Source: Candidatus Binatia bacterium
GTDB lineage: Bacteria; Chloroflexota; Limnocylindria; QHBO01
Direction of reading: 5' to 3'
Length of the DNA: 64,000 bases
NCBI GenBank assembly: GCA_035512895.1
Contig: DATKDB010000104.1
Location: forward strand, 1,818 to 65,817
Part shown: positions 268 to 37,506 of the stretch, piece after piece
Layout of the letters: each line of letters opens with the position of its first letter
Position numbering within the stretch: the stretch's first letter is position 1
Notes under the pieces: generated by a model
What the model was told of the DNA's origin: nothing
The model's database searches: none
Seen by the model: only the letters and a program-made list of their open reading frames with translations
Translations under genes and position numbers: made by a program

Positions 268-290
268 TTTGTAACTGCTGCGGTTACAAA
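268..290. promoter_or_regulatory. Perfect palindrome TTTGTAAC-N7-GTTACAAA about 55 bp upstream of the VWA gene start; candidate operator
   Basis: 8-bp perfect inverted arms, AT-rich in a 72% GC background. It lies inside a 44-bp repeat that is identical to the one at 1172-1215. Confidence 0.5.
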
Positions 291-395
291 TAAGGGCTGG
301 GAGAAGTGCCGTCCGATGCGGCCGCCACGTCCACGGGCCTCCGCGTGACGACGCGGCCGGGCCGCTTGGCCCCGGCCGCTCGTGACGTGTGACGC

Positions 396-1049
396 TCAGT
401 GCCCGATGAAGTGGAAGGAGCCCGCATGCTTCGAGATCAGCGCCTGATCGAAGGCAACGGCCTCGCCCCCGACGAGCACGCTGCCGCTCGCCGCGCGGGA
501 CTGCGTCCGGTTGACCTGCATCGCGCGGTATTCGCCCGGCAGGCTCTCCATGTACCGATCGGTGACGTTCTCTCGCGAACCGGTGGCGACGAGGTCCAAA
601 GACACGCTGACGCCCTCCTCCACCGAGGTGACCTCCCACAGCTCCAGGCAGCCGTCGAACGTGCCCGTGATGATCGTCATCGTGCCGGCGGCCGATGCGC
701 TGGACAGGTTCCGGGCGACCTCGAGCTCGGCGGGCGCGAAGTCGTCCCCCAGGCGGAACGTGCCGGACAGGCTCGAGTACTCGCCGCAGTCGACGGCGAC
801 CGCGGTCTGCTCGAAGAGTGAGATGCCCTCGAAGTCGTCCTGGTCGAAGGCGGCGACGATCCCCCACGTACCCGCGCCTGTCTCCAGGTCAACCTGGCCC
901 CAGACGACCTGCGCGACGCGCGCCTGGAACGAGCCGTGCGACACCTCGCGCGCCGCAGCCGGGACGACGAGGTTGATCGTGAGCGTGGCCGCGGCCAGGA
1001 CTGAGGCCAGGGCTGCGGCCACGTGGCGTCGATGAACGATGGACAGCAT
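396..1049 (-). CDS. secreted hypothetical protein (signal peptide)
   Basis: 217-aa ORF. The N-terminus MLSIVHRRHVAAALASVLAAATLTINLVVPAAA looks like a signal peptide. GC3-rich. Confidence 0.7.
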   Translation of the reverse strand: MLSIVHRRHVAAALASVLAAATLTINLVVPAAAREVSHGSFQARVAQVVWGQVDLETGAGTWGIVAAFDQDDFEGISLFEQTAVAVDCGEYSSLSGTFRLGDDFAPAELEVARNLSSASAAGTMTIITGTFDGCLELWEVTSVEEGVSVSLDLVATGSRENVTDRYMESLPGEYRAMQVNRTQSRAASGSVLVGGEAVAFDQALISKHAGSFHFIGH

Positions 1050-1187
1050 GGCTGCCTCCTCACTGCTCTCGCGCCCACGTCCGGAGCGCGTTTGCAGCCA
1101 CCCTGCGCGTCGGTCCCTGCGGCCAGCCCGCGGCCCGACTGCGGCGATCCTGCGGGTGCGCCGTCGACGGCTTGCGCCACTCCTCTA

Positions 1188-1210
1188 TTTGTAACTGCTG
1201 CGGTTACAAA
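1188..1210. promoter_or_regulatory. Second copy of palindrome TTTGTAAC-N7-GTTACAAA, upstream of the secreted-protein gene and just after the GNAT stop
   Basis: Identical 44-bp stretch (1172-1215 vs 252-295). Confidence 0.5.
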
Positions 1211-1236
1211 TAAGGCTGGGATGGGTTCTGCGCCCG

Positions 1237-1809
1237 TCAGTCGCCAGGTGCGTCGTTCGCGCCGCTCCGAGCGAGCAGCTCGGGCAGCGGGATCGGCTCC
1301 GGCGGGGTACCGACGGGCTCGGCCAGGCGCAGGCCGTACCACGCGACGTCCGGCCAGGCGCCGAACTTGAAGCCGACGCGCTCGTACACGCCGATGCGAC
1401 GCATCCCGATCGCCTCGTGCAGGGCGACGCTCGCCGGATTCGGCAGGGCGATCCCGGCGTACACGTTCACGAAGCCCTGCCGCCGCAGGATGTCGAGCAG
1501 CTCGTCATAGAGCGAGCGTCCGATCCCCCGCCCTGCGAAGCCCTCGGCGACGTAGACCGAGATGTCGACCGACCAGCGGTAACCGGCCCGCTCCCGATGG
1601 CGTGCGGCATAGGCATAGCCGACGAGGCGGCCAGCCTCCTCGGCAACGAGCCACGGTGTCCACTCGAGCGTCGCGCGCATGCGCCGCGCCATTTCGTCGG
1701 CAGACGGCGCGACGTCCTCGAACGTGGCGATCGAGCCGGCGACGAACGGCTGGTAGATGGCCGTCACGGCCGGCGCTTCGCGCTCCGGATCGGCAATTCG
1801 AACGTGCAT
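1237..1809 (-). CDS. GNAT family N-acetyltransferase (phosphinothricin/L-amino-acid acetyltransferase-like)
   Basis: Internal start MHVRIADPER. Motifs VGYAYAARHRERAGYRWSVDISVYVAEGFAGRGIGRSLY. I trimmed the upstream extension of the ORF. Confidence 0.8.
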   Translation of the reverse strand: MHVRIADPEREAPAVTAIYQPFVAGSIATFEDVAPSADEMARRMRATLEWTPWLVAEEAGRLVGYAYAARHRERAGYRWSVDISVYVAEGFAGRGIGRSLYDELLDILRRQGFVNVYAGIALPNPASVALHEAIGMRRIGVYERVGFKFGAWPDVAWYGLRLAEPVGTPPEPIPLPELLARSGANDAPGD

Positions 1810-1863
1810 GCGACGCTCATCCTGACGGACGGCGGCGGCACGCGGAATGCAGGTACAGCGGGC

Positions 1864-2220
1864 ATGAGCGACAACGACATCCACGGCATCGAGAAGGGCT
1901 GGCACGTCCAGACGGCGGACGGGCACGATATCGGGTCCGTCGAGGAGACGACCGACACGTACATCCTCGTCAAGTCGGGCCTGATCAACACGACGCAGCG
2001 CTACCTGCCGGCGGCGCTCCTGGCGCACGTGCGCCCTGAGAAGAACCAGATCGACATCTCGGCCACCCAGCAGGTGATCGAGGAGGGCGACTGGTCAGCG
2101 CCGCCGCTCGAGGGCCCGCGCCGCGAGGGCGCGCCGCTCAACGACGGGACCTACGACGAGGAGCGCGACCCGGTCGCTGCGGGCGTCGTGCGCGATCCGG
2201 AGCGCCCGACGACCATCTGA
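1864..2220 (+). CDS. DUF2171-like small protein
   Basis: MSDNDIHGIEKGWHVQTADGHDIGSVEETTDTYILVKSG resembles the DUF2171 pattern. Divergent from the GNAT gene. Confidence 0.55.
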   Translation: MSDNDIHGIEKGWHVQTADGHDIGSVEETTDTYILVKSGLINTTQRYLPAALLAHVRPEKNQIDISATQQVIEEGDWSAPPLEGPRREGAPLNDGTYDEERDPVAAGVVRDPERPTTI

Positions 2221-2340
2221 CGGGCCCAGCTCCGACGCGCCGCGGCACGCGCCCGCTGCCTCGAGCGTGCGGTTGCCGTCGCCAAGCCGGAAGGCCGGCT
2301 CAGGCGACGGAACGACGGCTGGATCGAGCGGCGACGCGGG

Positions 2341-3636
2341 CTAGCGACTGAAGCTGCCCTCGGCACGGCGCGGACGCCGTGCTCGACGCGATCCGAAGCG
2401 GGCGTTCGGCGTGCCGTCGCGGCGCGGGCCTGGCGCCCCACGTCGCTGGCCGCCACGCTGGCCGGCATGCTGGCCGGAACGGAGGCGGATCGGCTCCGGC
2501 CGAATCTCGCGATTCGGCTCGAATCCGGGGATGACCTGTGAGGCGATCGGGCCGTGCAGCAGCCGCTCGATGTCGCGCAGCAGCGGCGCCTCGTCGACGC
2601 AGACGAGCGAGACGGCGGTGCCGGTGATGCCGGCTCGGCCGGTGCGGCCGATGCGATGGACGTAGTCCGACGGCACCATCGGCAGTTCGAAGTTCACGAC
2701 GTGCGGCAGGCGCTCGATGTCGAGCCCGCGCGCCGCGACCTCGGTCGCGACGAGCAGCAGGATGCGGCCGGCCTTGAAGTCGGCGAGAGCGCGGACGCGC
2801 TGCGGCTGCGACTTGTTGCCATGGATCGCGGATGCGGCGATGCCGTCCTTGTTCAGCTGCTCTGCGAGGCGGTTGGCCCCGTGCTTCGTCCGCGTGAAGA
2901 CGAGTGCCTGGTCGATGACGCGCGTGCGCACGAGGTGCGTGAGCAGCTCGCGCTTGCGCTCGCGGTCGACCGGATGGATGACCTGCTCGACGAGGTCGAC
3001 GGCGGTGTTCTCCGGCGTGACCTGGACCGATGCGGGCCGGTCGAGGAGCCCCTCGGCGAGCGAGCGGATCTCGAGCGAGAAGGTGGCGCTGAAGAGAAGG
3101 TTCTGGCGACGCGGCGGCAGCAGCGCCAGGACCTGGCGGATGTCGCGGATGAAGCCCATGTCGAGCATGCGATCGGCCTCATCGAGGACGAGGATCTCGA
3201 CCGCGCGAAGGTCGATCGTGCCCTGGCGGGAGTGATCGAGCAGGCGCCCCGGCGTGGCGACGACGACGTCGACGCCGCGACGCAGCGCGTTGACCTGTCC
3301 GCCGAAGCCGACGCCGCCGTAGATCGCGGTCGAGCGGACGCTGCCGCCCGAGTACGTGCGGACCGACTCCTCGACCTGGATCGCCAGCTCGCGGGTCGGT
3401 GCCAGTACGAGGACGCGGATGCGCCGGTCGGTGGACGGGCGCGCGGCGAGGCGCTGGAGGATGGGCAGGACGAATGCCGCCGTCTTGCCGGTGCCGGTCT
3501 GGGCGCCGGCCATGAGATCCCGACCCTCGAGGACGAGCGGAATCGCCTCGAGCTGGACGGGGGTGGGATGCGTGTAGCCCTGGCGCGCGACAGCGCGCTG
3601 CAGGTCGGGCGTGAGCCCAAGGGTAGAGAAGGACAA
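2341..3636 (-). CDS. DEAD-box ATP-dependent RNA helicase
   Basis: Q-motif, [32 protein letters not shown] place the start at TTG (LSFSTLGL) with AGGAGC 9 nt upstream. The ORF in the track runs further upstream to 3774. Confidence 0.85.
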
Positions 3637-3815
3637 GGGGAAATAGCTCCTGACGAGGCCCTCCCGCTGAAAGCGGGGCCCGGTCAGGGCGAACGGTTGA
3701 TCAAGCTCGGACTTCAGATGAGAAGCGGCGCAGACCGGTGCGCCTTTCGAACACGTGTGCGAAATGTACCACATCGATCCGGTGTACGCTTAGGACCCCA
3801 CGGAATAAGGTGCCC

Positions 3816-4154
3816 ATGACCGACCGATGTATCCACGGGTTCGAAACCCAACGCTGCGCTTCCTGCCGTCGCTGCCCTCACGGGATCCTCGACTCCCGGT
3901 GCGCGACCTGCAACCCGAAGACCGCCCGCGAGGCCACGATCCGGCTCGCGAACGACGCCCCCCAGCCATCGGAGGAGCATCGCGGCTACGAGATCCTGTA
4001 CGTGGCCGGTGAGCGAAGCTGGTACATCAAGGCCGATGCGGACGCCCCCCTGTCCCAGGCCTCCTACCGCTCGGCCTTCCAGGCCCGCCGGAGGATCGAC
4101 GAGATCCTCGACGCCCCCGCCCCCGTCGAGAGTGGCAAGAAGAAGAAGGGCTGA
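3816..4154 (+). CDS. Cys/His-rich small protein (tandem C-x-H-x6-C-x2-C units), ends in KKKKG
   Basis: MTDRCIHGFETQRCASCRRCPHGILDSRCATC. AAGG 7 nt upstream of the ATG. Sits 56 bp upstream of the cyclase gene. Confidence 0.55.
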   Translation: MTDRCIHGFETQRCASCRRCPHGILDSRCATCNPKTAREATIRLANDAPQPSEEHRGYEILYVAGERSWYIKADADAPLSQASYRSAFQARRRIDEILDAPAPVESGKKKKG

Positions 4155-4209
4155 CCTAGCGCCCCGCGGGTCGTGATACGTTTGGCGCCGGTAGGAGGAG
4201 CGACGCCCA

Positions 4210-8642: not shown

Positions 8643-8708
8643 GCGACCAGTCTAGGACCGCTCTCGTCAGGTTGCCCGAGGCATCGCTGGCGCGGCGACC
8701 AGCGGACC

Positions 8709-9110
8709 TCAGGCGCGCTCGACGGCGACGTCCGCGGAGGGGGACGCCGAGAGCTCGCGTGCGTCGCGAGCCACGATCGCTCCGAGCCAGAACGCGAGCA
8801 GGGCCCCGACCGGGTGCAGCGCGGCCAGGAAGGGCGCATCGGCTTTGAAGAGGACGACGATCGGGATCACGAACGTGACCGCGGCCAGCGCCGCCGCGAG
8901 CTGGATCCGGCGCCGCCCGGCCCGAGCCAGCGCCGCCGCCACGAGGATGAGGATCGGCACGAGGTGGAGGAGCCAGCCGAAGCCCACGTGGACCTCGGTC
9001 CAATCGGATGGGCCGAACAACCCGAGGCCGATGAAGAAGACCTGGGCGACAAGTCCCACCAGGAATGCCCACGCCAGGGCGAGATAGGCGTACCGCGCGG
9101 CTCGGACCAT
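8709..9110 (-). CDS. small integral membrane protein
   Basis: MVRAARYAYLALAWAFLVGLVAQVFFIGL, four predicted TM helices. I trimmed the upstream ORF extension. Confidence 0.55.
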   Translation of the reverse strand: MVRAARYAYLALAWAFLVGLVAQVFFIGLGLFGPSDWTEVHVGFGWLLHLVPILILVAAALARAGRRRIQLAAALAAVTFVIPIVVLFKADAPFLAALHPVGALLAFWLGAIVARDARELSASPSADVAVERA

Positions 9111-9211
9111 GTGTGCACCCTCCGTCGAAGCCATTGGTCGGTTTAGGCGCGAGCATACGCGCCAGGTCACCCGCCGCACCGAGCGTGCGGACGCGCGCTA
9201 CGCTGCCGGGC

Positions 9212-9829: not shown

Positions 9830-10133
9830 CCGAGCTGTCGGCCAGGGCGCCGAGCTCCGCGTGGGCCTCGTGGAGGCGATCGCGGACGGCGCGGCTCCCG
9901 TTCGCATCGACCTCGGGCTCCATCGCGAGGAGCAGCGATCGGCCACGCTCGAGCAGCGCATCGACCTGGCCATCGCCGGGGGCGACGCTCCGCACGGCGA
10001 CACGGGTTGAAACGACGACCACACGAATTCGGAGCAGCATCGTACGGTCGTCCATCCGGCTCGCTCTAGCAAGGGTGATGCCGCCTCCGCTCGGCCGTCT
10101 CCAGGTCGCCGCCGGGGCTGAGGAAGCGCTCGA

Positions 10134-11069
10134 TCAGGTCGACCTGCTCTGCACGGCTCGTCTGGGCACGGCCGGATCGGCGAGGACGATCGCGGCGTCG
10201 ACGCCGATATCCTCGATGATCCGCTCGTATCGGTAGTAGACGATCGCCTCGGGGTCAACCTCGACCGCGCCATAGCCCTCGAAGAACCACGCCTCCTCGT
10301 GCGGCTGGACGGCACGCGCGATCCGGGAGCCGATGACGAAGAGCAGGTCGCGCTCGCGCGGCGCGAGCATCGGCCCATCCCAGCCGACCATGAGGATCCG
10401 GCCGTCGTCGGCGACGAGGACGTTGGCCGCATGGATGTCTGCGTGGCACAGGACGCGTGGATGCGGCCGTCCGCGCAGGACCGCGCCGAGCTCCTCGGCT
10501 CGGCCGATGGCGGCGTCGATCCAGTCTCGCGCATCGTCCAGGAAGGCGCGCAGCCGCACCGCCTGGGACGAGCGCACGGACGGCGCCCAGTCGAGGACCG
10601 TGCGCAGCACCGCCGCCGATGGCAGCGCGAACGACTCCACCGGCAGCCGATCGGCGAATCGCTCCTCCAGGCCGCTGTCGTGGACGGCGCGCAGCGCGCT
10701 GCCAAAGCCGCGCCACTGTGCGGCCGACATGCCGGCGACCATCGCGTCGCGGCCGGCGACGAACGGCTGGACGACGAGGCTCCGGTCGTCGGGCAGCGGA
10801 TGCGCGAGCGTCCCCGCGTGCGTCCGCATCGGCGCGAGAACGTTTGTCACGCCGGCGTCGAGGAGGGCGCGCGGAACCTCGAGCGGCACGTCGGACCGCG
10901 GGCCGAAGCGGACCTTCGCGAACCATCGGCCATCCGGGCCGGCGACGTCGTAGGCGGCGGCCTGCGGATCGTGGCCGGGCACGAACGTGAAGCGGCTGGC
11001 GCCGATGCCGTACGCCGCGCGGAGGGAATCGGCCAGCGCTCGCGTGTCGAGGCCGGGATCTTCGAGCAT
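10134..11069 (-). CDS. phosphotransferase (APH/choline-kinase family)
   Basis: VLCHADIHAANVLVADDGRILMVGWDG (HxDxxxxN plus D). The 3' end may carry a frameshift: a conserved-looking tail, AEQVDLIERFLSPGGDL, lies in another frame. Confidence 0.7.
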   Translation of the reverse strand: MLEDPGLDTRALADSLRAAYGIGASRFTFVPGHDPQAAAYDVAGPDGRWFAKVRFGPRSDVPLEVPRALLDAGVTNVLAPMRTHAGTLAHPLPDDRSLVVQPFVAGRDAMVAGMSAAQWRGFGSALRAVHDSGLEERFADRLPVESFALPSAAVLRTVLDWAPSVRSSQAVRLRAFLDDARDWIDAAIGRAEELGAVLRGRPHPRVLCHADIHAANVLVADDGRILMVGWDGPMLAPRERDLLFVIGSRIARAVQPHEEAWFFEGYGAVEVDPEAIVYYRYERIIEDIGVDAAIVLADPAVPRRAVQSRST

Positions 11070-15550: not shown

Positions 15551-15826
15551 ATGAAGAGCATCCCGATCACCGAGCTGAGGCAGCGAGCCGCAGATGTCAT
15601 CGAGCGGGCCGGGACGAGCGACGAGCCGACGGTCATCCTCAAGCGGTCGCGCAAGGCCGCGTACATCGTCAGTCCCGAGCGCTTCGAGCAGGACCAGGCC
15701 GAGCTGCGAGCCCTCCGCCGGGCACTCTTCATGTCCGAGGTCCGCGAGGCCGAGGCCGAGCACACCGCGGGCCAGGCACGGCAGTTCGAGGACTTGGAGG
15801 ACCTCCTGGACGAGCTTCGGTCCTGA
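15551..15826 (+). CDS. type II antitoxin, Phd/YefM family
   Basis: MKSIPITELRQRAADVIERAG...PTVILKRSRKAAYIVSPERFE. Confidence 0.85.
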   Translation: MKSIPITELRQRAADVIERAGTSDEPTVILKRSRKAAYIVSPERFEQDQAELRALRRALFMSEVREAEAEHTAGQARQFEDLEDLLDELRS

Positions 15827-15829
15827 CCG

Positions 15830-16084
15830 ATGCGCCTCCAGGCATCGAGCCGATTCCTGCGGCGCGCGAAGAAGCTGCGAGAGCCCCAGGCGACGATGCT
15901 GCGCGCGGCCCTTCGCCGATTCGCCGCGGACCCGGCCGACCCCCTGCTCCGCGTCCACAAGCTGAAGGGCGAGCTGCGCGACTACTGGTCGTTCACCGTC
16001 GACGACGACCTGCGCGTGCTTTTCCGCTGGGACCGCGACGTTGCGTTCCTCGTCAACATCGGCTCACACGACGAGGTCTACTGA
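15830..16084 (+). CDS. type II toxin, RelE/YafQ family
   Basis: HKLKGELRDYWSFTVDDDLRVLFRWDRDVAFLVNIGSHDEVY. The start lies 4 nt after the antitoxin stop. Confidence 0.75.
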   Translation: MRLQASSRFLRRAKKLREPQATMLRAALRRFAADPADPLLRVHKLKGELRDYWSFTVDDDLRVLFRWDRDVAFLVNIGSHDEVY

Positions 16085-17637: not shown

Positions 17638-17918
17638 GGCCTGTCCTGCGGTTCGATTCCGGCCTGCCTGAGAATACTCCGGTAGGTGCCCGTCGCAAGG
17701 TGACGGCTCGGTTTCCCCGCGATCGTCACGAGCCCCGGTCATTTGGGATGCACAAAGTGCCGATGGCTGCCGCGAGTCCGCACCCACCGCCAGCCGTGCG
17801 CTTCAACGAGCCGAATGGCATCTCGAACTTGGGCACCCACGCATCGTCACGAAGCTGCCTTATCGCGGGCTTACCGCTGCGTTACAGCGGACTGCCCAAC
17901 GTCGCATCGCTCGCGTGC

Positions 17919-18094
17919 TCGCGTGGCGCGAGGCCCGTATCCACCCGGGGACTCTACGGCCACTCATGGGCCGATGCATGCGCGCCAACCCTTGCGACCG
18001 CCATCCACGCCGCCCCAGCTTGGCTGACCGATCCACCGCCCGCATAACCCGCCATCCGACGGCCGTTAGAGTCACCCGGGCGATACGCGAGCAG
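17919..18094 (+). repeat. Copy B of the structured repeat
   Basis: About 85% identical to the copy A core. Lies immediately upstream of the kinase gene at 18137. Confidence 0.7.
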
Positions 18095-18136
18095 TCCGCC
18101 GCGGATAATCGGCGGCATGGACAGGGGCCACGCTGC

Positions 18137-19033
18137 ATGACCGATGCGCCCGACGGCGATGCCGTCGCCGCGTCGCTGGCACGCGATTGGGGCCTCCGCG
18201 CCCCGACGATCGAGCGCCATGACCGCGGGATGAACTCCAGGACCTGGATCATCACCGACGGCGCTCGCCGGTGGGTCGCCAAGGCCGTTCCCGCCGACGT
18301 CCAGCCGAGCTTCGCGGCGGGGCTCGCCGTCGCCTCCCTCGTCGATGCCGCCGGCATCCCGAGCGGTGCGCCGGAGCCGACGCGATCCGGGGCGCTGTCG
18401 GTCGTGCTCGGCCGTTGGACCCTCGCGCTGCTGCGGTTCGCCGACGGCGAGCCGCTCGTCGGGGACGACGAGCGGGAGCAGCGGCTCATCGGCCTGACGC
18501 TCGCGCGGGCGCATCGGGCACTGAGGGGGCGCGAGGTCCCGGGCGCCGAGCGATTTCATTGGATCGATGCCGAGGCGTCACACCTCGACATCGAGCCCTG
18601 GGTTCGGCCGGCCGTTCGCGCTGCCATCGGCGCCTACGACGCCATCCACCCGCATGAGCTGACGTGGGGCCTGCTCCACTCGGACCCCGCGCCGGAGGCA
18701 TTCCTGTGCGACGCGCGCACCGACCGATGCGGGCTCATTGACTGGGGCACCGCGCTCGTCGGTCCGCTCATGTACGACGTCGCGTCGGCGGTGATGTACG
18801 TGGGCGGCCGCCGATACGCCTCCACCCTGCTGGACGCCTACCTGGCCGAGCGGGTGATCCCGGCCTCGGAGGTCGAGCGCGCGCTCGAACCGATGCTCCA
18901 GCTGCGCTGGGCCGTCCAGGCCGATTACTTCGCCCGGCGCCTCGCGACCGACGACCTCACGGGGATTGCGAATTCGGACGAGAACCAGGTCGGCCTCGAC
19001 GACGCCCGTCGGGGGCTGCTCGGCTCATCCTGA
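18137..19033 (+). CDS. phosphotransferase (APH / homoserine-kinase II-like)
   Basis: LLHSDPAPEAF (HxD), IDWG and MYDVASA. I moved the start to the ATG downstream of the repeat element (MTDAPDGD). Confidence 0.75.
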   Translation: MTDAPDGDAVAASLARDWGLRAPTIERHDRGMNSRTWIITDGARRWVAKAVPADVQPSFAAGLAVASLVDAAGIPSGAPEPTRSGALSVVLGRWTLALLRFADGEPLVGDDEREQRLIGLTLARAHRALRGREVPGAERFHWIDAEASHLDIEPWVRPAVRAAIGAYDAIHPHELTWGLLHSDPAPEAFLCDARTDRCGLIDWGTALVGPLMYDVASAVMYVGGRRYASTLLDAYLAERVIPASEVERALEPMLQLRWAVQADYFARRLATDDLTGIANSDENQVGLDDARRGLLGSS

Positions 19034-23148: not shown

Positions 23149-23529
23149 TCAGTAGGTCAGGACCGATGCCCCCTGGCGCTCGAAGTCTGGCCGGTTGCGA
23201 GTGACGATGGTGGCGTCCAGGCCACGCGCCACCACGGCGATGAGCGCGTCGCCGAGACCCAGCTTGCCACCCGCCTGATGTCGCGCGAGGCGGGCCGCGC
23301 CGGCAGCCCGGGCCGCGGTCGGATCGGTACCCACGAAGTCGAGGGGGTCGAGCAGCCGGGAAATCACGTCTCGGTGGTCGTCGCTGCCACCGGAGAGCGC
23401 CTCGCACACGACCACGTCGCAGATGAAGAGCTCCGCGCCCTCCTCGTACAGCCGCTGCAGCAATGCCATGGCGGGTTCGTGCCCGTGGGCATGGTCGACG
23501 ATCAGCGTCGTGTCGAGCAGGTAGCGCAT
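23149..23529 (-). CDS. vapC: VapC PIN-domain toxin
   Basis: MRYLLDTTLIVDHAHGHEPA... PIN acidic residues. Confidence 0.8.
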   Translation of the reverse strand: MRYLLDTTLIVDHAHGHEPAMALLQRLYEEGAELFICDVVVCEALSGGSDDHRDVISRLLDPLDFVGTDPTAARAAGAARLARHQAGGKLGLGDALIAVVARGLDATIVTRNRPDFERQGASVLTY

Positions 23530-23878: not shown

Positions 23879-24745
23879 CTACCGCGATCCGCGATTCCCG
23901 TCGGGCCGGATCCTGACGACCTCGGTCGCGAGCTGCCTGCCCTTCAGGTCGAGCGACGTGCGCTCGAGCGACGGATCGAGGCCGGCTGCCTCGGCCGCAG
24001 CGACCGAAACGACGACCTCTCCCCGCTCCGCCTGCGACGCGAGGCGTGCCGCAACGTTGACGACATCCCCGACCGCGGTCAGCTCGACATGGGTGCCCTC
24101 GCCTACTGCGCCGAACCACGTCCGGCCGAAGTGGACGCCGGCACCGACCGGGACCCACGGCCCGCCGGGATCGGCGTGCCCCGTCGCGCGCAGGAGCGCC
24201 TTGGCGGTATCGACCGCGCGCGCCACGTACCGCTCGCCGGCGAGGAGCGGGAAGAAGAGGGCGACGAGCTCGTCACCGACGAACTTGTCGACGTACCCGT
24301 CATGGTCGAAGACGGCCTTCGTGGCCGTCGTGTAGAAGCGGTCGAGCAGCGCGTGGAACTCGCCGGGCGACATCCCCTCCGCCAGCGCGGTCGAGCCGCG
24401 GATGTCGGCGAAGAGCATCGCGCCATCCACCTCGGCACCACCGTGGTGCTTCGTGAGCATGTCGGTGCACGAGTTGCACCAGTTCGGGTTCGATTCCGAC
24501 TGGCGCTTGCCGAAGACGCGCATGAAGCGGCCTCCGCGACCGCCGAACGGCGCCGCGCACATCCGGCATCGCGGCTCGGACGGGATGCGCATGAAGACGT
24601 GGCGGCCGACCGTCTTGAACGTGTCGCCGCCCTCCGTCAGGAACTTGCGCCAGAACTCCTCGTCCCGCGTGTCCTGCGCGGGTCCCGAACTCACGCTCGC
24701 TCGCTCATCGGCGCTTCGGTCCTCCTCGATCGGTTCGATCGGCAC
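23879..24745 (-). CDS. class III adenylate/guanylate cyclase with N-terminal zinc-ribbon-like Cys cluster
   Basis: CRMCAAPF...CNSC, then AMLFADIRGSTAL, FVGDELVALF, VNVAARL. Confidence 0.8.
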   Translation of the reverse strand: MPIEPIEEDRSADERASVSSGPAQDTRDEEFWRKFLTEGGDTFKTVGRHVFMRIPSEPRCRMCAAPFGGRGGRFMRVFGKRQSESNPNWCNSCTDMLTKHHGGAEVDGAMLFADIRGSTALAEGMSPGEFHALLDRFYTTATKAVFDHDGYVDKFVGDELVALFFPLLAGERYVARAVDTAKALLRATGHADPGGPWVPVGAGVHFGRTWFGAVGEGTHVELTAVGDVVNVAARLASQAERGEVVVSVAAAEAAGLDPSLERTSLDLKGRQLATEVVRIRPDGNRGSR

Positions 24746-24792
24746 CGAACCATGATAGGACCCGGCGTCGACCGTCTCATCGCGTCGCTCCT

Positions 24793-25037
24793 CGGCTCGT
24801 GGCAGGGCGTCTGTGGCTGGCCGCGTACCGCTCGCTTATCGCCCGGGTGACTCCAACGGCCGGCGGATGGCGGCGTATGCGGCCGGTGGATCGGTCAGCC
24901 AAGCTGGGGCAGCGTGGATGGCGGTCGCAAGGGTGAACGCGCATGCATCGGCCAATGAGTGGCCGTAAGAGTCCCCCGGTGGATACGCACGCGGCCCTGA
25001 CCCCGCTGATCGGCTCCGTCCGCGACTCCGGCCGCTG
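24793..25037 (-). repeat. Copy D of the structured repeat
   Basis: About 90% identical to copy C. The 3' flank reproduces the last 35 nt (including the stop) of the gene at 22248-22877. Confidence 0.7.
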
Positions 25038-25050
25038 ACCAGGCGGCGTC

Positions 25051-25074
25051 GAGGGTCTCCCAGAGGGTCTCCCA
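25051..25074. repeat. tandem 12-mer GAGGGTCTCCCA x2
   Basis: Perfect direct duplication, abutting the palindrome at 25075. Confidence 0.6.
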
Positions 25075-25097
25075 TTTGTAACCGCAATGGTTACCAA
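25075..25097. promoter_or_regulatory. Palindrome TTTGTAAC-N7-GTTACCAA (one mismatch)
   Basis: Same family as 268-290. Confidence 0.4.
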
Positions 25098-25167
25098 TTC
25101 CTGCGCGGAGACATAGACCGTGCCGAATTGGAGGAACGTCGAGCCTGCGGGAGCTGTAGTGGCCCTA

Positions 25168-25190
25168 TTTGTAACGCCGCTGGTTACAGA
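25168..25190. promoter_or_regulatory. Palindrome TTTGTAAC-N7-GTTACAGA (one mismatch), 17 bp after the stop of the membrane-protein gene
   Basis: Same family. Left arm CTATTTGTAAC is identical to copies 1 and 2. Confidence 0.45.
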
Positions 25191-25206
25191 TGGAGGCCGA
25201 GGGCAA

Positions 25207-25596
25207 TCACGCCTGCCGGCGCAGCACGGCCCACAGGATGAGCCCGGACCCGATGATCCCGACGAGCGGCAAGCCGATGTTCAACGGGAAGTCAGCCACG
25301 GGGTTCTCGTAATAGGCGAACATCCAGACGCCGACGAGAAGCGCGAACAGGCTGCCGGCCATGAGGACGGCCGCGATCCCCCACGCCAGCCCGCGCGCCC
25401 AGGTCTCGCCCGTTCGCCAGCCGAGGAGCAGGGGCGCCGTCACGACGCCGAGGGCGTAGCCCGCGAACACGATGAGCGACCCGGGATCGGCGAACGCCGA
25501 GCCCATCGCCAGCGCCAGCAAAGTAATGAGGAGCGGGCCGAACGCCAGGACGGCGGGCCGGGCGAGGACTCGGGTCATTGAGATCTGCATCATCAT
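25207..25596 (-). CDS. small polytopic membrane protein
   Basis: 129 aa, four hydrophobic helices. Confidence 0.6.
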   Translation of the reverse strand: MMMQISMTRVLARPAVLAFGPLLITLLALAMGSAFADPGSLIVFAGYALGVVTAPLLLGWRTGETWARGLAWGIAAVLMAGSLFALLVGVWMFAYYENPVADFPLNIGLPLVGIIGSGLILWAVLRRQA

Positions 25597-26045
25597 GCGC
25601 CAGAGTCTGCCCCCGCCGGCCTGCGGTCAGCCTGCGGTGAGCCGACGGCGTAAGGTGGACCCGTGCACGACGAAGAAGAGACCGATCCGACACCCCTGCC
25701 ATCGAGGCCGTCCGGCGGGCAGCTCATCGGCGGCATCCTCGCCGGCCTCGAGCATCTCCTGACCGGCCGGCCCCGCCCGGTCGCGCAGATCGAGGAGCGC
25801 TACCGCGATCCGTGGGCGTCGTCGCTGGGCGTGACGGTCGAGGGGCTCGACGAGCCGATCGAGCGGCCGGAGCCGCCGGACCGATCCGGTGCGCGCCTCT
25901 GAACGTCCGCCCCCGGGGCAGTCCTCATGGGGCCTGCCCAATTCATCGCCCGATCGGGTACAACTGCTGTCCGCACTGAGCGGCATATGGAGTGCATGAC
26001 CGGCGGCTGACCGCCGACGACGTGCGGACGAAGGAGGACAACTCG

Positions 26046-26486: not shown

Positions 26487-26502
26487 CGTCGCCCGGGGCC
26501 GA

Positions 26503-29370: not shown

Positions 29371-29494
29371 GGGAGGAACACTCCGTGTGCGGTGATGTGT
29401 TGACGTGGATCCGCACACTCGGGAAGGGTGATCTCGGGCCCCCGTGCAGCGATGCATATAGACCAGCATTGCTGCATGTGCTACGGTATATGCG

Positions 29495-29716
29495 ATGCGC
29501 CGCACGTCAATCCTACTCGACCCCGGACTTTTGGCCGAGCTGGAACGGATCGCTCACCGCGAGGACCGGCCGACGGCCCACGTCATCCGCGAGGCGCTCG
29601 ACCGCTACGTGGCGGCCCAGGCGGCCGAGCAGCGCGCGCTCCCCGGCTTCGTGGGGCTCGCAACGGGGCCGGGAACTGACGCGCTGCCGGCGGACGCGGC
29701 CGAGCCCGGGGAGTGA
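29495..29716 (+). CDS. RHH antitoxin (VapB/CopG-like)
   Basis: MRRTSILLDPGLLAELERIAHREDRPTAHVIREALDRYV. Confidence 0.7.
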   Translation: MRRTSILLDPGLLAELERIAHREDRPTAHVIREALDRYVAAQAAEQRALPGFVGLATGPGTDALPADAAEPGE

Positions 29717-30135
29717 CCGCCGTCATCGACGCGCGCATCCTGTACGCCCTCGTCGACAACGCTGACAGCATCCACGATCGGGCCGTCGCCGCTGTGCAGG
29801 GCGAGACCGAGGCGATCATCGTGCCGCAGGCCATCCTGCCGGAGATCTGCTACCTCATCGCCTCGCGACTCGGCGCCGCCCAGGAGGCGGCATTCATCCG
29901 CTACCTTGCCGACTCGGACTGGCGCCTCGAGGCTCTGAATGCACAGGACGTCTCACGCGTCATCGCGCTCATGTCCGAGCACGGGACGGCCGGCATCGGA
30001 TTCGTGCATGCCGCCGTCGCCGCCGTCGCGGAGCGCATGGGCGCGACCCGCATCTACACGCTGAACCGCCGGCACTTCGAGGCGATCCGCCCGAGCCACG
30101 TCAGCCGCTTCGAGCTCCTGCCCGATCCCGACTGA
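29713..30135 (+). CDS. vapC: VapC PIN-domain toxin
   Basis: MTAVIDARILYALVDNADSIHDRA. 4-nt overlap with the antitoxin. Confidence 0.8.
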   Translation: MTAVIDARILYALVDNADSIHDRAVAAVQGETEAIIVPQAILPEICYLIASRLGAAQEAAFIRYLADSDWRLEALNAQDVSRVIALMSEHGTAGIGFVHAAVAAVAERMGATRIYTLNRRHFEAIRPSHVSRFELLPDPD

Positions 30136-30148
30136 TCTGCCCGGCGCG

Positions 30149-31063: not shown

Positions 31064-31161
31064 CGGGTTTGGGAACACCCTACCGCGATCGGCGACCGAC
31101 CGCAATGACCCGCGTGGCCGGCGGGTACCATCCGCGAGTTCATTTCCCGCAGGAGAACGTC

Positions 31162-31524
31162 ATGGCCAAGCTCCTCGTGCACCTGACCGCCGGCCCGCAC
31201 GACCCGACCCGCGCCGCCCTCGCCTTGCTCGTCGCGCGGACCGCCGCGGCCGGCGGGCACGAGGTGTCCGTCTTCCTCGCCGGCGACTCGGTCGCCTACC
31301 TGCGCGACCCGATCATGGACGCCGCGCAGGGCATCGGGACCGGCAGCGTTCGGGAGCACTACACGGCGCTCGCGGCAGCCGGCGTGCGCGTCTTCGCGTC
31401 GGGCATGTCGAGCAAGGCCCGCGGCGTCGACGCCGATGCGACCGGCGGCAAGCCGGTCGAGTTCGCGCCACCGGACAAGCTCGTGGAGCTCATCTTCGAG
31501 GCGGACCGCGTCGTCACGTACTGA
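31162..31524 (+). CDS. DsrE/DsrF-like family protein
   Basis: MAKLLVHLTAGPHDPTRAALALLVARTAAAGGHEVSVFLAGDSV. GGAGAA upstream of the start. Confidence 0.65.
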   Translation: MAKLLVHLTAGPHDPTRAALALLVARTAAAGGHEVSVFLAGDSVAYLRDPIMDAAQGIGTGSVREHYTALAAAGVRVFASGMSSKARGVDADATGGKPVEFAPPDKLVELIFEADRVVTY

Positions 31525-31595
31525 GGCTTCCGTCTTGCGGGGCTGACGGGCGCGGGCGTATCGTTCGGCCCTGCCCGGCGGAAGGAGATCACGAG

Positions 31596-33620: not shown

Positions 33621-33697
33621 CACGAAGAATGACCGGCGCCTCCACCGTGGGAGACGCCGGTCGATCGGTGTGGTCCGGGCGTGAGAGCGCCCTCGAG

Positions 33698-34537
33698 CTA
33701 CGGAGTGGGCTCGCGGGGCGGCGTGCTCGGCTCCGGGTTCGTGGCCGAGCCGCCACCTGGCGGGGAGCCCGTCGCGGGGGCGGTTGCCGCCGTGCCGGTG
33801 CCAGATGAGCCGGTCGACGACTGCGACTGGTACCGGGCGACCTTCTGGCTGGCCGCACGGCCCTTCTCGTACCAGCCGGCCGTGATCTGGGCGGCGGTCT
33901 GCTGCCCACCGAGGCCGAAGGCGAGGCCGACGGCCAGGACGACGAGCGCCACGAGGCCGATGAAGAGCGTGTTGACGACCGTCGCGGCGATGCCGAGCTG
34001 GTTGACGGCCGCGATGATCGCGAACGCGAGGATCGCGTAGTACGACACGCTTCCGAGCAGCTCGGAGTTGCTGAAGCCCATCTGACTTGTCGAGCCGCGC
34101 ACGAGACCGCCGACGAAGCGGGCGATGAGCGCCCCGATGACGATGATCGCGATCGCGACGACGAGGTTCGGCAGCCAGAGCAGGATCGCGTTGATGATCG
34201 AGCTGATCTGGTTCAAGCCGAGGATCGAGGCCGCGGCCTGGATCGCGATCAGGCGGATGAACCACTTGATGATCTCGGCCACGATCGCGCTCGCGGTCCA
34301 GCTCGATCCGCTGCGCTCGATGAACGAGCTGATCCCGGTTGTCTGCGCCGCACGCTCGAAGCCGACCATCTTCAGGCCGCGCTCGACGAGGCCGGCGAGG
34401 AGGCCGGCGAGGAACCAGCCGATGATGAGGATGAGGATCGCGCCGACGAGCGCGGGAAGGAACCCGAGGAAGTTCTGAAGGGCCTCGGTGGCCGACACCA
34501 TGACGGCGTCGCCCCAATTCTGGACGGTGTTTTCCAT
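33698..34537 (-). CDS. membrane protein with conserved TM-helix repeats (MscS-N-terminal-like), Ser/Thr/Pro-rich tail
   Basis: AGGAGAA SD. MENTVQNWGDAVMVSATEALQNFLGFLPALVGAILILIIGWFLAG. Confidence 0.6.
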   Translation of the reverse strand: MENTVQNWGDAVMVSATEALQNFLGFLPALVGAILILIIGWFLAGLLAGLVERGLKMVGFERAAQTTGISSFIERSGSSWTASAIVAEIIKWFIRLIAIQAAASILGLNQISSIINAILLWLPNLVVAIAIIVIGALIARFVGGLVRGSTSQMGFSNSELLGSVSYYAILAFAIIAAVNQLGIAATVVNTLFIGLVALVVLAVGLAFGLGGQQTAAQITAGWYEKGRAASQKVARYQSQSSTGSSGTGTAATAPATGSPPGGGSATNPEPSTPPREPTP

Positions 34538-34568
34538 GTTGGGCGTTCTCCTGTGACGGGCGTCTAGC

Positions 34569-34991
34569 CTACCGGGGTTGCATGTCACGTGCCCCGTCGA
34601 TTGCGCGCCGGACGCTCTCGAGCAGGCGGTCGACGTTGAGCGGCTTGCGCAGGACGGCGACGGCCTCGAGCGTCTCGCTCGGCCGCTGCCAGTACGCCGA
34701 GAGCACGATGACCGGGATCCTCGTGAGCTCGTGCCGTCGCAGCATCTGCGACCGCAGCGTGAACCCGGACATCCCCGGCATGAACAGGTCGGTGATCACG
34801 AGGTCTGGCAGGCGCTCGACCATCTCGGTGAGCGCCAGACCTCCCGACGCGACGGCGATGACTTCGTAGCCCTCCGCCTCGAGGACCTCCCGCAGCATGG
34901 CGCGCATCTCGACCGAGTCATCGGCGACGAGGACGACGGGGCGCTGGCCGGGCGGCCGTACCTCGACTGGCTGGGCTTCGATGTGCTGCAT
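34569..34991 (-). CDS. single-domain response regulator (CheY-like receiver)
   Basis: VVLVADDSVEMR...DLVITDLFMPGMSG...VIVLSAY. Confidence 0.75.
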   Translation of the reverse strand: MQHIEAQPVEVRPPGQRPVVLVADDSVEMRAMLREVLEAEGYEVIAVASGGLALTEMVERLPDLVITDLFMPGMSGFTLRSQMLRRHELTRIPVIVLSAYWQRPSETLEAVAVLRKPLNVDRLLESVRRAIDGARDMQPR

Positions 34992-35051
34992 CGGTGGATC
35001 TCTGGGTGGCGCGGTTGCCCGCGACAACGCAATCTCCATGCCGCGTCCGTC

Positions 35052-35714
35052 ATGATGTGGAGCATGCCGCCGTCCTGCTGCACGCCCGACTACGACGCCG
35101 CGTTCGACGCGCGATCCGCGCGACGGCAGGCGCTGGCCTATCGCCGATCCGGCGCCGGGGGGAGCACGCTGCGCCTCCTGAACGCGATCCGCGAGACCGA
35201 GGTCGCGGGCGCAGCGGTGCTGGACATCGGCGGCGGCATCGGCGTCATCGGTCTCGAGCTGCTGGCCGCCGGAGCCGCCTCGCTGACGAGCGTCGACGCC
35301 TCGCGGCCGTCAGTGGCCGTCGCCAAGGGGGAGTTGCAGCGCGCTGGCTTGGCGGACCGCGCAACCGTGCGGCATGGCGACTTCGTTGAGCTCGCCGGCG
35401 AGATCGAGGCGGCCGACGTCGTGACGCTCGACCGCGTCGTGTGCTGCTACGGCGATTGGCGAGCGCTCGTGGACGCATCAGTCTCGCATGCCCGGCGAGT
35501 CATCGGCCTCGTCTATCCGAACGAGCGGTGGTGGATGCGCGCCGGCATCGGCATCGGCAACCTCATGCTGCGGCTCGTCGGCCAGTCGTTCCGTGGCTAC
35601 GTGCACCCGGAGCGCGCGATCGACGATCGGATCCGGCGTGCGGGCTTCGAGCGGCGCACGCATCACCGCGGGTGGCTGTGGCAGACCGTGCTGTACGAGC
35701 GGGCGGCGCGCTGA
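35052..35714 (+). CDS. class I SAM-dependent methyltransferase
   Basis: VLDIGGGIGVIGLELL glycine-rich SAM motif. Confidence 0.7.
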   Translation: MMWSMPPSCCTPDYDAAFDARSARRQALAYRRSGAGGSTLRLLNAIRETEVAGAAVLDIGGGIGVIGLELLAAGAASLTSVDASRPSVAVAKGELQRAGLADRATVRHGDFVELAGEIEAADVVTLDRVVCCYGDWRALVDASVSHARRVIGLVYPNERWWMRAGIGIGNLMLRLVGQSFRGYVHPERAIDDRIRRAGFERRTHHRGWLWQTVLYERAAR

Positions 35715-35759
35715 GTCCGGCGCGCTAACGGCGATTGACGAGCACTCATGGAGGCATCG

Positions 35760-35950
35760 GTCTCGCATGCCCGGGGGCTCAAGCCGCGTGCCGCATGCCT
35801 CTGGGGACTCTAACGGCCTGCGGATGGCGGAATATGCGGCCGGTGCATCGGTTCGCCAAGGTTAGGCATCGTCGTTGACGGTGGCAGGGATCGGCGCGCA
35901 TGCATCGGCCATTACGTGGCTGTAAGAGTCACGGGGTGGATGCGGGACGA
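35760..35950 (-). repeat. Copy E of the structured repeat (most divergent)
   Basis: GGACTCTAACGGCCTGCGGATGGCGG...GCGCATGCATCGGCC...GCTGTAAGAGTCACGGGGTGGATGCGG. Confidence 0.55.
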
Positions 35951-35995
35951 AGGGGCTGTGCCGCACGCTGAGCCCGGTCCACTGAACCGAACGAC

Positions 35996-37435
35996 CTAGC
36001 GGGCGTAGCGGACGCCGGCCCCGCGGCGTTCCTTGTTTAGGCGCCGGTTCAGGTGCAGCCCCTCGAGCACGAACTCGATGGCGGACGCGCGCCCGGCGGC
36101 CGACTCGCCGGCGTCGAGGCGGGCGATCGCCGATCCCAGCTCCGCGACCGCGCTCACGAGCTCGCCGTGCGCCGACGACGGCACGAACTCCCCGACCTCC
36201 GCCTCCAGGCCCTCGGTCTCGAACCGCTCGATGAGCGGCATGAGCTCGGCCAGCGCAAAGTGGCGGTTGAAGACGTTCACGACCGCTCGCGCCACGAGCT
36301 TCTCGACGACGCGGTCCTCGCGCGTCTCGTCGCCGAGCGTCTCGAGCTCGATCTTTCCGGCCGTCGAGGCCACGACGGCGGGCAGGTCGCTGATCCGCGG
36401 TGCCGCCGACGGCTCGCCGAGGCGAACCGCCCGCTTCAGCGCGGCCGCGCCGAGCGTCTCGTGATTCGAGATCGTGACGCGCACCGACACGCCGGAACGT
36501 TGCGACACCTCCGACGAGCGTCGGGCCAGCTGCGACAGCTCGGCGACGATCTCCTTCATGAATCCCGGCGTCTGCACCGGGACCGATGCCGGCGTGCCCT
36601 CGGCGGCGTCCTCGAACACCGAGGCCTCGCCCTCCATGATCGCGATCTCGGTCGCCGCCTCCTCGGGGTAATGCGTCCGGATCTGAGCCCCGAACCGGTC
36701 CTTGAGCGGCGTGATGATCCGGCCGCGGCTCGTGTAGTCCTCCGGGTTGGCCGACGCGATGACGAACAGGTCGAGCTCGAGGCGGACGCGGTACCCGCGA
36801 ACCTGGACGTCGCGCTCCTCCATCACGTTGAGCAGGCCGACCTGGATCCGCTCCGCGAGGTCGGGCAGCTCGTTGAGGCTGAAGATGCCGCGATGCGTCC
36901 GTGGCAGGAGCCCGTAGTGGATCGTCAGCTCGTCGGACAGATAACGGCCCTCGGCCACCTTGACGGGATCCACCTCGCCGATGAGGTCGGCGATGCTGAT
37001 GTCCGGGGTGCTGAGCTTCTCGCTGTACCGATCCTGCGCGGCCCACCAGCCGATCGGCGTCGCGTCGCCGTGCTTCGCGACGATGCTGCGTGCGAGCGGC
37101 GAGACCGGATGGAACGGGTCGTCGTGGAGCTCGGTGCCGGCCACGTACGGCAGCCACGGATCGAGCAGGTCCACGAGGGCGCGCGCGATGCGGCTCTTCG
37201 CCTGGCCCCGCTCGCCGAGGAGGATGACGTCCTGGCCGGCGAGGATCGCGTTCTCGAGCTGCGGCAGGACGGTCTCGTCGTATCCGAGGATGCCCGACAG
37301 GAACGGGTCGCCGGCCCGGACGCGGTCGAGCAGGTTGCCGCGCATCTCGGCCTTGACGGTCCGCGAGCGCCAGCCGGCGGAGCGCAGCTCACCGAGGGTC
37401 GTGTCTGCGGGGTGCTGGGTCGCGGGCTCGGGCAT
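35996..37435 (-). CDS. AAA+ ATPase, Mg-chelatase ChlI-like (VWA-partnered type)
   Basis: ILGYDETVLPQLENAILAGQDVILLGERGQAKSRIARALVDLL, compared with ChlI IVGQE...GDRGTGKST.VRAL.DLL. Sensor-2-type C-terminus. Confidence 0.8.
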   Translation of the reverse strand: MPEPATQHPADTTLGELRSAGWRSRTVKAEMRGNLLDRVRAGDPFLSGILGYDETVLPQLENAILAGQDVILLGERGQAKSRIARALVDLLDPWLPYVAGTELHDDPFHPVSPLARSIVAKHGDATPIGWWAAQDRYSEKLSTPDISIADLIGEVDPVKVAEGRYLSDELTIHYGLLPRTHRGIFSLNELPDLAERIQVGLLNVMEERDVQVRGYRVRLELDLFVIASANPEDYTSRGRIITPLKDRFGAQIRTHYPEEAATEIAIMEGEASVFEDAAEGTPASVPVQTPGFMKEIVAELSQLARRSSEVSQRSGVSVRVTISNHETLGAAALKRAVRLGEPSAAPRISDLPAVVASTAGKIELETLGDETREDRVVEKLVARAVVNVFNRHFALAELMPLIERFETEGLEAEVGEFVPSSAHGELVSAVAELGSAIARLDAGESAAGRASAIEFVLEGLHLNRRLNKERRGAGVRYAR

Positions 37436-37483
37436 CAGGCGCAGAGGCTAGCACCCGCGCGGCACAACGGCTATGGGGGCCGA

Positions 37484-37506
37484 TTCGTAACGGCCGCCGT
37501 TACAAA
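37484..37506. promoter_or_regulatory. Palindrome TTCGTAAC-N7-GTTACAAA 48 bp upstream of the ChlI-like ATPase start
   Basis: Same motif and same spacing as the site upstream of the VWA gene at window start. Confidence 0.55.

Follow-up and report, generated by a model that had tools for sequence, protein, structure and literature searches.

A recurrent palindrome in a high-GC genome as a probable operator of the HypR/SifR/YwnA type, with a short Rrf2 protein as its candidate regulator

The DNA analysed here, a stretch of 64,000 nucleotides (nt) from contig DATKDB010000104.1 of assembly GCA_035512895.1 (hereafter the window), carries five copies of an AT-rich palindrome of the general form (A)TTTGTAAC-N7-GTTACAAA(T), one of them upstream of a gene for an AAA+ ATPase and another upstream of a gene for a VWA-domain protein. 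Our analysis suggests that this palindrome is probably a HypR/SifR/YwnA-type Rrf2 operator that is read by a homodimeric winged-helix regulator. A search for TTGTAAC-N7-GTTACAA with up to two mismatches returned exactly five matches in the window, at the places listed in a preliminary description of this DNA, compared to a mean of 0.00 in 100 shuffles preserving dinucleotides, so that the number expected by chance is nil. The inner core GTAAC-N7-GTTAC was perfect in all five sites, against an expectation of 0.15, while in the 9-nt arms sites 1 and 2 were perfect and sites 3, 4 and 5 had one uncompensated mismatch each. Since the GC content of the window is about 70-71%, the AT-rich arms are conspicuous, and the spacers between them are GC-rich, as had been described, with G or C at 4 to 7 of their 7 bases. 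Sites 1 and 2 are not independent of each other, because both lie within a 44-nt exact direct repeat (252-295 and 1172-1215).

The core and spacing of all five sites, TGTAA-C-N7-G-TTACA, are the same as those of the HypR and SifR operators. HypR of Staphylococcus aureus, an Rrf2-family repressor of hypR-merA that responds to hypochlorite and disulfide stress, binds TAATTGTAACTA-N3-CAGTTACAATTA, as was demonstrated by gel shift and by mutations in the repeats that abolished binding (PMC6067689). Likewise, SifR of Streptococcus pneumoniae binds TGTAA-N9-TTACA with a Ka of about 1e8 per M, and its operator was compared by the same authors with those of HypR and SaiR (PMC9218516). SifR and YwnA of Bacillus subtilis were assigned in that study to a large cluster whose Rrf2 members have one conserved cysteine (PMC9218516). 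Operators of this type comprise about 25-27 bp altogether. Because core and spacing agree with these published operators, the box that had first not been recognised as any well-known actinobacterial one corresponds to a known box, although a literature search under the two half-site strings themselves returned nothing relevant.

Several other known elements were compared with the palindrome and rejected. Its arms end in AAC and begin with GTT like the core sites of integron attC, but the element comprises only 25-31 nt and has no second box pair, and the ATAA-N6-TTAT core of Xer/dif sites is missing. The TnrA/GlnR box (TGTNA-N7-TNACA) has the wrong spacing, and the actinobacterial GlnR box and the boxes of BldD and PadR do not match the spacing together with the full arms. 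The palindrome itself was also rejected as a promoter with -35 and -10 elements, as TTGTAA and TACAAA are only 9 nt apart.

The way in which the sites vary favors recognition by a protein. In an alignment of 31 palindromes from the window and from high-GC loci of public genomes, the half-site consensus was (CCT)ATT(T/C)GTAAC, and the spacers were unrelated. At the three flank positions, 10, 16 and 12 arm-to-arm matches were observed, compared to 10.6, 17.4 and 14 expected if the two arms were independent. Six A-to-G changes were found in the arms (four left, two right), and no site had one in each arm. An excess of double changes was confined to the T/C position; these were concentrated in particular genomes, and this fits a lineage preference rather than base pairing. 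A similar trend was found between related copies: the copy before the VWA gene and its counterpart on L048, a contig with 95% DNA identity to the left end of the window, have identical arms while 3 of the 7 spacer bases differ, and two other palindrome loci (L034 and L101) have identical arms and diverged flanks. Taken together, conserved arms, a free spacer and the lack of compensation favor the independent recognition of two half-sites by a protein dimer, in line with the operator-like behavior for a dimeric transcription factor that had been proposed.

Further evidence for an Rrf2-family regulator came from the genes that accompany the palindrome elsewhere. A scan of public genomes, limited to one per species, for exact matches to the 18-base pattern ATTTGTAAC-N7-GTTACAAAT returned at least 120 loci, and 30 of the 120 matches listed have a YwnA-like Rrf2 gene that begins at the palindrome (tblastn). 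In the moderate-GC loci (Acidobacteriota, Anaerolineae, Firmicutes and others) TTGACA stands before the palindrome, whose spacer reads TATAAT, and a gene starts at, or a few bases from, the end of the palindrome; the products of these genes comprise about 140 amino acids (aa), begin with M-x-x-N-x-x-F-A-x-x-x-H and are Rrf2-family regulators. The high-GC loci among the matches belong to metagenome-assembled genomes (MAGs) of Limnocylindria or 'Chloroflexia'. If the assignment is true, the HypR/SifR/YwnA operator would extend well beyond the Firmicutes, to Chloroflexota, Acidobacteriota and others.

In one of the Limnocylindria-type MAGs (L113), a 122-aa protein with a Pfam match to Rrf2 (E = 1e-22) is encoded between two palindromes. 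A protein search revealed about 33 close homologues with 55-66% identity, mostly of 100-125 aa, one of them annotated as Limnocylindria, and the order of an ABC transporter gene, an asparaginase gene, rrf2 and a convergent pyruvate kinase gene is conserved. In five independent loci (L113 and L202-L205) the rrf2 gene is bracketed by palindromes, one over its ATG and one after its stop codon. The upstream palindrome in these loci reads ATCTGTAAC-nnnnATG-GTTACRAAT, with the start codon in the spacer and the conserved N-terminus V-T-N-R encoded by the right arm, and in three of the five loci a -10-like hexamer, TAATCT, overlaps the left arm. This is the arrangement expected of an autorepressed regulator gene with a leaderless transcript. 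The reading frame in L204 is broken near residue 83, by either a sequencing error or decay to a pseudogene, and six further loci (L206-L211) have a degenerate upstream palindrome and no downstream one. The short rrf2 gene and other palindromes occur together in the MAGs MFD02360.bin.1.60 (L033, L061, L113) and M3-S bin.20 (L034, L107/L118, L204).

By sequence, the closest solved structure to these short Rrf2 proteins is that of B. subtilis YwnA (1XD7), with VVVRR identical in the helix-turn-helix region. The short proteins contain no cysteine, and a deletion of about 15 residues covers the Cys-Pro-Val segment that is kept in the aligned longer homologues. Judged from these features, the candidate regulator belongs to the Rrf2 superfamily without being a monothiol sensor: it retains the DNA-reading part of the family and has lost its known sensor. 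In the mechanism that we propose, each Rrf2 monomer would read one (CCT)ATT(T/C)GTAAC half-site and leave the 7-nt spacer unread. The likely regulator would be a cysteine-free Rrf2 protein (about 120-125 aa) whose gene is located outside the window, flanked by the asparaginase and pyruvate kinase genes. At rrf2 itself the upstream copy would cover the -10 element and hold the ATG of a leaderless transcript, implying autorepression, and in the window this protein would occupy sites about 45-80 nt before the predicted VWA and ATPase start sites as well as the three remaining intergenic copies. We infer that such a short Rrf2 is encoded in the genome of the window and binds all five sites. If this is true, a probable regulator with a testable regulon would be available for an uncultured soil lineage (Limnocylindria), together with a truncated Rrf2 variant in which the DNA-reading part has been retained and the known sensing residue lost.

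Within the window (Table 1), genes were called by third-position GC content and annotated with Pfam and NCBIfam. Copy 2 is located 25 nt 3' of the stop codon of a GNAT gene (1237) and 137 nt upstream of the ATG (1049) of gene B, which encodes a secreted protein. The centers of copies 3 and 4 are 93 nt apart; copy 3 precedes the start of an adenylate cyclase gene (24745) by about 330 nt, and copy 4 lies 15 nt past the stop codon of a small membrane-protein gene (25207-25596, minus strand). Copy 5 occupies a divergent intergenic region, 48 nt from the ATPase ATG (37435), as had been described, and 279 nt from a TasA/camelysin-like gene (start 37785). Most copies, here and in the public loci, are found in tandem intergenic regions, and for several of them the next start codon, itself preceded by a TANNNT hexamer, is 60-70 nt downstream. 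Adenylate/guanylate cyclase genes downstream of palindromes were observed in the window (23879-24745, minus strand) and in two public loci (L061 2582-3796 and L107 5717-6580, both minus strand), and in the latter two the cyclase gene is about 65 nt from the palindrome center, with the TANNNT hexamer 8 nt before the ATG. This association could be a functional theme or could merely reflect how common cyclases are in these genomes.

Table 1. Palindrome copies and associated features. Positions refer to the window except in the last row, which gives positions within the respective loci; the fourth column gives the match to TTGTAAC-N7-GTTACAA within the full 25-nt site.
Feature	Position	Strand	Pattern match	Description
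Copy 1	267..291	.	269-289	ATTTGTAAC-TGCTGCG-GTTACAAAT; 60 nt upstream of VWA ATG (207)
Copy 2	1187..1211	.	1189-1209	identical to copy 1, spacer included
Copy 3	25074..25098	.	25076-25096	ATTTGTAAC-CGCAATG-GTTACCAAT; one mismatch
Copy 4	25167..25191	.	25169-25189	ATTTGTAAC-GCCGCTG-GTTACAGAT; one mismatch
Copy 5	37483..37507	.	37485-37505	ATTCGTAAC-GGCCGCC-GTTACAAAT; one mismatch
Rv0959-like VWA gene, 5' end (69 codons)	1..207	-		97% identical to the L048 orthologue; remainder past the window edge
Predicted VWA promoter	218..247	-		GTGGAC (247-242)-N18-TAGGCT (223-218); ends 10 nt before ATG
Gene B	396..1049	-		217-aa signal-peptide protein, no family match; inside the 920-bp indel; absent from L048
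Adenylate/guanylate cyclase gene	23879..24745	-		downstream of copies 3 and 4; possible target
Rv0958-like AAA+ ATPase gene	35996..37435	-		479 aa; ChlI/MoxR/sigma-54-activator-like P-loop core
Predicted extended -10 of ATPase gene	37445..37453	-		TGCTAGCCT; ends 9 nt before ATG
Short Rrf2 genes in related loci	L113 4701-5066; L202 ~9975-10357; L203 6034-6411; L204 4888-5187; L205 3638-4003	L113 -; L202 +		~120-125 aa

The preliminary description had treated the two genes as an ATPase of the magnesium chelatase type and its natural VWA partner, sitting apart in this genome. The ATPase assignment was borne out by a match to the AAA+ core with weak matches to Sigma54_activat, AAA_5 and Mg_chelatase, and homologues in public databases are named 'magnesium chelatase subunit I' or 'sigma 54-interacting'; an exact look-up of the protein matched no contig. 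An NCBI protein encoded on a 68,458-bp MAG contig is 100% identical to the ATPase. The VWA assignment holds through orthologues, as the one on L048 has a VWA_2 domain and the 675-aa protein P0167, from this 68,458-bp contig, which is taken as the source of the window, is 98% identical to the L048 orthologue and contains Mb0984_helical, VWA_2 and Rv0959_3rd, but the 69 residues encoded in the window gave no Pfam match. Copy 1 is upstream of this gene, as claimed, but at a distance of 60 rather than 54 nt, since the start codon is most likely the ATG at 207 and not the one proposed at 213.

A metagenome scan for relatives of the ATPase yielded 80 loci with 61-90% identity and a total length of 674 kb. 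In nearly all loci of 61-81% identity that extend far enough downstream, the VWA gene directly follows the ATPase gene, while in the closest group (85-90% identity) the two genes are not adjacent, and in three related VWA loci the VWA gene stands alone, 3' of a GNAT gene, with variable small inserts. The adjacency in the more distant loci and its absence in the closest clade indicate an ancestral pair that was broken up in this clade, which agrees with the idea of a natural pair and answers the question of whether the genes are neighbors in related genomes. The named close relatives of the ATPase (86-89% identity) and of the VWA protein are all Limnocylindria or Chloroflexota, so the genome is probably a Limnocylindria-like member of the Chloroflexota and the actinobacterial background against which the motif was first viewed would not apply. 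The labels 'Candidatus Binatia' of the window contig and 'Steroidobacteraceae' of L048 look wrong beside these relatives and are probably due to mis-binning.

Both genes have predicted promoters of their own. A transcript from the predicted VWA promoter would be leaderless or nearly so. Its TAGGCT hexamer recurs 8-10 nt before the VWA start in all three relatives (L212, L213, L214), and the full GTGGAC-spacer-TAGGCT block is common to L213 and L214, while none of the three carries the palindrome. For the ATPase gene, about 9 of the 16 closest loci listed (L122-L136) have an element of the TGGTAGGCT/TGCTAGCCT type at the same place, some 9 nt from the start codon, which suggests an extended -10 promoter and a leaderless transcript. 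Measured from these elements, the palindrome ends 19 nt upstream of the predicted VWA -35 hexamer and 32 nt upstream of the predicted ATPase -10 hexamer (TAGCCT), and the palindrome centers are at about -68 (VWA) and -57 (ATPase) from the predicted start sites.

The first interpretation was partly upheld, but its claim that the common site specifically ties the two genes together was not supported. A copy does precede both genes, but the other three lie beside unrelated ones, namely gene B and the 3' end of the GNAT gene, and the membrane-protein and cyclase genes. Even at a relaxed threshold, no palindrome was found in the 80 ATPase loci, and the half-site ATTTGTAAC, which occurs 7 times in the window, was absent from their 674 kb. 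Likewise, there was no palindrome in the three related VWA loci (38 kb), though two of these MAGs have palindromes elsewhere. The copy before the VWA gene is kept only in the 95%-identical contig, and the phylogenetic footprint anticipated in relatives was thus not found beyond it. As judged from these loci, the site before both genes is a recent, one-lineage feature and not a conserved link. Since it is absent from relatives and present beside unrelated genes, co-regulation of the ATPase and VWA genes is only possible and would be lineage-specific. The link is consequently of local interest, and would show a split operon regaining common control in one genome and a near-identical contig.

Several observations weigh against the interpretation of the palindrome as an Rrf2 operator. 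There is no Rrf2 gene within the 64-kb window, and the signal-sensing cysteine of HypR and SifR is missing from the candidate regulator. Before the VWA and ATPase genes, the palindrome is found upstream of the predicted -35 position, whereas published repressors of the HypR/SifR type act at sites overlapping the -10 or -35 (PMC6067689, PMC9218516); a site in this upstream position might serve activation, interfere with upstream elements or block read-through transcription. Some copies lie between convergent genes (L061 5082, L113 4669) or just after stop codons. In addition, contigs with the palindrome hold further copies at about one per 6-13 kb, a density that is high for near-perfect sites and was obtained from loci fetched for one perfect site. 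Seven copies occur in about 8 kb of JBOGSW010000079 (L107/L118) and three in the 4.9 kb of L104, while the loci around rrf2, about 38 kb long, contain no copies besides the two that bracket the gene. This patchiness, with dense occurrence on some contigs and none in the 674 kb of relatives, suggests a recent spread rather than an old regulon.

The surroundings of copies 1 and 2 point in the same direction. The 44-nt repeat is the exact core of a 72-nt direct repeat (231-302 and 1151-1222) that contains the palindrome and flanks a 920-bp indel relative to L048, whose single counterpart of the repeat is at 1808-1879. Gene B, inside this indel, was found by exact look-up only on a 936-bp public contig (L001, SRR8556377) that is 100% identical to positions 266-1201 and ends in the two palindromes, with both ends inside the repeat copies. 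A 24-nt exact direct repeat is present on both sides of copy 1 (226-249 and 313-336), and its minus strand, CCGTGGACGTGGCGGCCGCATCGG, is the -35 and spacer part of the predicted VWA promoter, so that a promoter segment has been duplicated around a 63-nt stretch with the palindrome. The interval between the GNAT and VWA genes (208-1236 in the window; L212 4767-5495, L213 953-1639, L214 5614-5952) was different in every relative examined: two of them have an XRE-type helix-turn-helix gene there and one has a small open reading frame, whereas the interval of L048 is empty and that of the window contains gene B. It thus appears to be a hotspot of gene gain and loss. The repeats and the indel keep alive a minority reading in which the palindrome, or a slightly larger unit, has recently spread and promotes rearrangement. 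One combination of these ideas, in which the operator of the cysteine-free Rrf2 protein escaped from its rrf2 home locus in some Limnocylindria and multiplied as a portable regulatory or insulating module and recombination hotspot (gene B indel, GNAT-VWA region), and in which its acquisition before both the ATPase and the VWA gene restored their joint control, is conceivable but in our estimate rather unlikely.

An alternative without regulation at each copy is a short repeat element, similar to REP sequences or MITEs, that would recently have spread through intergenic DNA in a few lineages of Limnocylindria, whether by duplication, by gene conversion or through some mobilising activity, its likeness to the Rrf2 operator reflecting an origin at the rrf2 locus. 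This would account for five copies in 64 kb here and seven on JBOGSW010000079 where the relatives with ATPases of 61-90% identity have none, for copies in tandem, divergent and convergent intergenic DNA, often 10-30 nt after stop codons, for the nested 44- and 72-nt repeats at the indel and two copy pairs with similar flanks on one contig, and for near-perfect sites with 0-1 arm mismatches, a uniformity rarely seen within a regulon. We nevertheless consider it unlikely, because beyond the duplicated pair nothing is common past about 31 nt and the spacers are unrelated, whereas copy-and-paste elements normally retain loops and flanks, and no transposase or RAYT-like gene was found among the neighboring genes of the examined copies. 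Furthermore, the arm changes are uncompensated, which indicates that hairpin formation is not under selection.

Three other interpretations are much less probable. The layout of 9-12-nt arms around 7 nt resembles the core sites of tyrosine recombinases, and the palindrome might accordingly be a site-specific recombinase core with a 7-nt crossover that marks the boundaries of cassettes such as gene B. Copies 1 and 2 around the gene B indel have the same spacer and the same orientation, and rrf2 and several L107/L118 genes are each bounded by copies. This is nonetheless very unlikely, since no recombinase gene was detected near the window sites or in the related loci examined, the 72-nt repeat reaches well past the palindrome and is better explained by homologous recombination, the spacers of almost all other copies differ, which would prevent exchange between them, and the same sequence is an experimentally proven protein operator elsewhere.

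The palindrome could also be read by a dimeric regulator of another family, with a coincidental match to the Rrf2 operator. Consistent with this, Pfam annotation of the roughly 45 window genes placed no Rrf2 or other regulator gene next to any of the five sites, and about 33 loci of Opitutaceae, Lacunisphaera and related Verrucomicrobiota (among L004-L115; for example L030, L062 and L088) have the same arms with a conserved spacer, ATTTGTAAC-GTAWTAC-GTTACAAAT, and no Rrf2 gene nearby. These palindromes occur on several contigs per MAG, often with the start codon of an unrelated gene only 3-30 nt downstream, and their outer flanks are often complementary and differ between copies (GGAA/TTCC, GATA/TATC, GGAT/ATCC). 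On the other hand, the palindrome brackets an Rrf2 gene in five independent loci of the window's own clade, and agreement by chance at nine specified bases in each arm, with equal spacing, is improbable, making a regulator of another family a highly doubtful explanation. Weakest of all is an RNA hairpin acting as transcription terminator or 3'-end stabiliser: although several copies follow stop codons by 10-30 nt and copies 1 and 5 fold better than shuffled sequences (z ~-4.4), this is extremely improbable given that the predicted stabilities range widely (-6.5 to -19.8 kcal/mol) with copy 4 no better than shuffled, the stems are AT-rich and not the GC-rich ones of intrinsic terminators, no U-tract follows any of the five copies and no terminator was found by a scan of 24700-25700 around copies 3 and 4, arm mismatches are uncompensated and flanks do not covary, copy 5 and the L061 site at 3849 are in divergent promoter regions, and no Rfam family matches in the window. 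A tRNA scan of the window was likewise negative.

Some further features of the window were noted. Genes of the toxin-antitoxin type, namely a Phd/YefM antitoxin gene with a YafQ/RelE-like toxin gene and two PIN-domain genes, are located at 15551-16084 (plus strand), 23149-23529 (minus strand) and 29713-30135 (plus strand). Between about 16700 and 20900 the GC content decreases to 0.665-0.69 and the third-position GC of the open reading frames is below that of the rest of the window; the sole family match there is a phosphotransferase (APH, 17915-19033), and the stretch may be acquired DNA. The TasA/camelysin-like secreted-protein gene and the gene after it, which has weak matches to signal peptidases (S24/S26), form a cluster (37785-38988, plus strand). 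This cluster diverges from the ATPase gene, with copy 5 in the common intergenic region, and the pairing resembles tasA and sipW of Bacillus.

Comparison with known systems places the palindrome and its neighboring genes more precisely. REP elements are likewise short intergenic palindromes present in many copies and often near the 3' ends of genes, but they are characterized by compensated hairpins, near-identical copies and an associated RAYT gene, while the window palindrome shows no compensation, no conserved loop and no common flank, has unrelated spacers, has no transposase or RAYT-type gene among its neighbors, and corresponds to an established protein operator. The ATPase and VWA genes resemble Rv0958 and Rv0959 of Mycobacterium tuberculosis, in which a gene for an AAA+ 'magnesium chelatase-like' ATPase is followed by a VWA gene. 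The family domains are present here as well, with Mb0984_helical and Rv0959_3rd in the VWA protein as in Rv0959, but the operon arrangement is not: the genes are about 35 kb apart in the window, are separate in the closest clade and each have their own predicted promoter.

The core operator of SifR, TGTAA-N9-TTACA, is the same as the core of the window sites. SifR and YwnA carry a conserved, quinone-reactive Cys-Pro-Val at the head of the dimer helix, whereas the short Limnocylindria Rrf2 lacks the whole segment, and SifR targets catechol and quinone detoxification genes, a theme that does not recur around the window sites. In the case of HypR, the operator TAATTGTAACTA-N3-CAGTTACAATTA contains TTGTAAC-N7-GTTACAA, alike in bases and spacing, and is bound by an autoregulatory Rrf2 homodimer. 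The HypR site overlaps the -10, while those at the VWA and ATPase genes are upstream of the predicted -35; Cys33 and Cys99 are the sensing residues of HypR, while the candidate Limnocylindria regulator has no cysteine; and HypR controls one operon, while the window has five sites in 64 kb. The only unusual points of the present case are thus the sensor-less candidate regulator and the patchy multiplication of its site, and otherwise the palindrome would belong to a known operator class.

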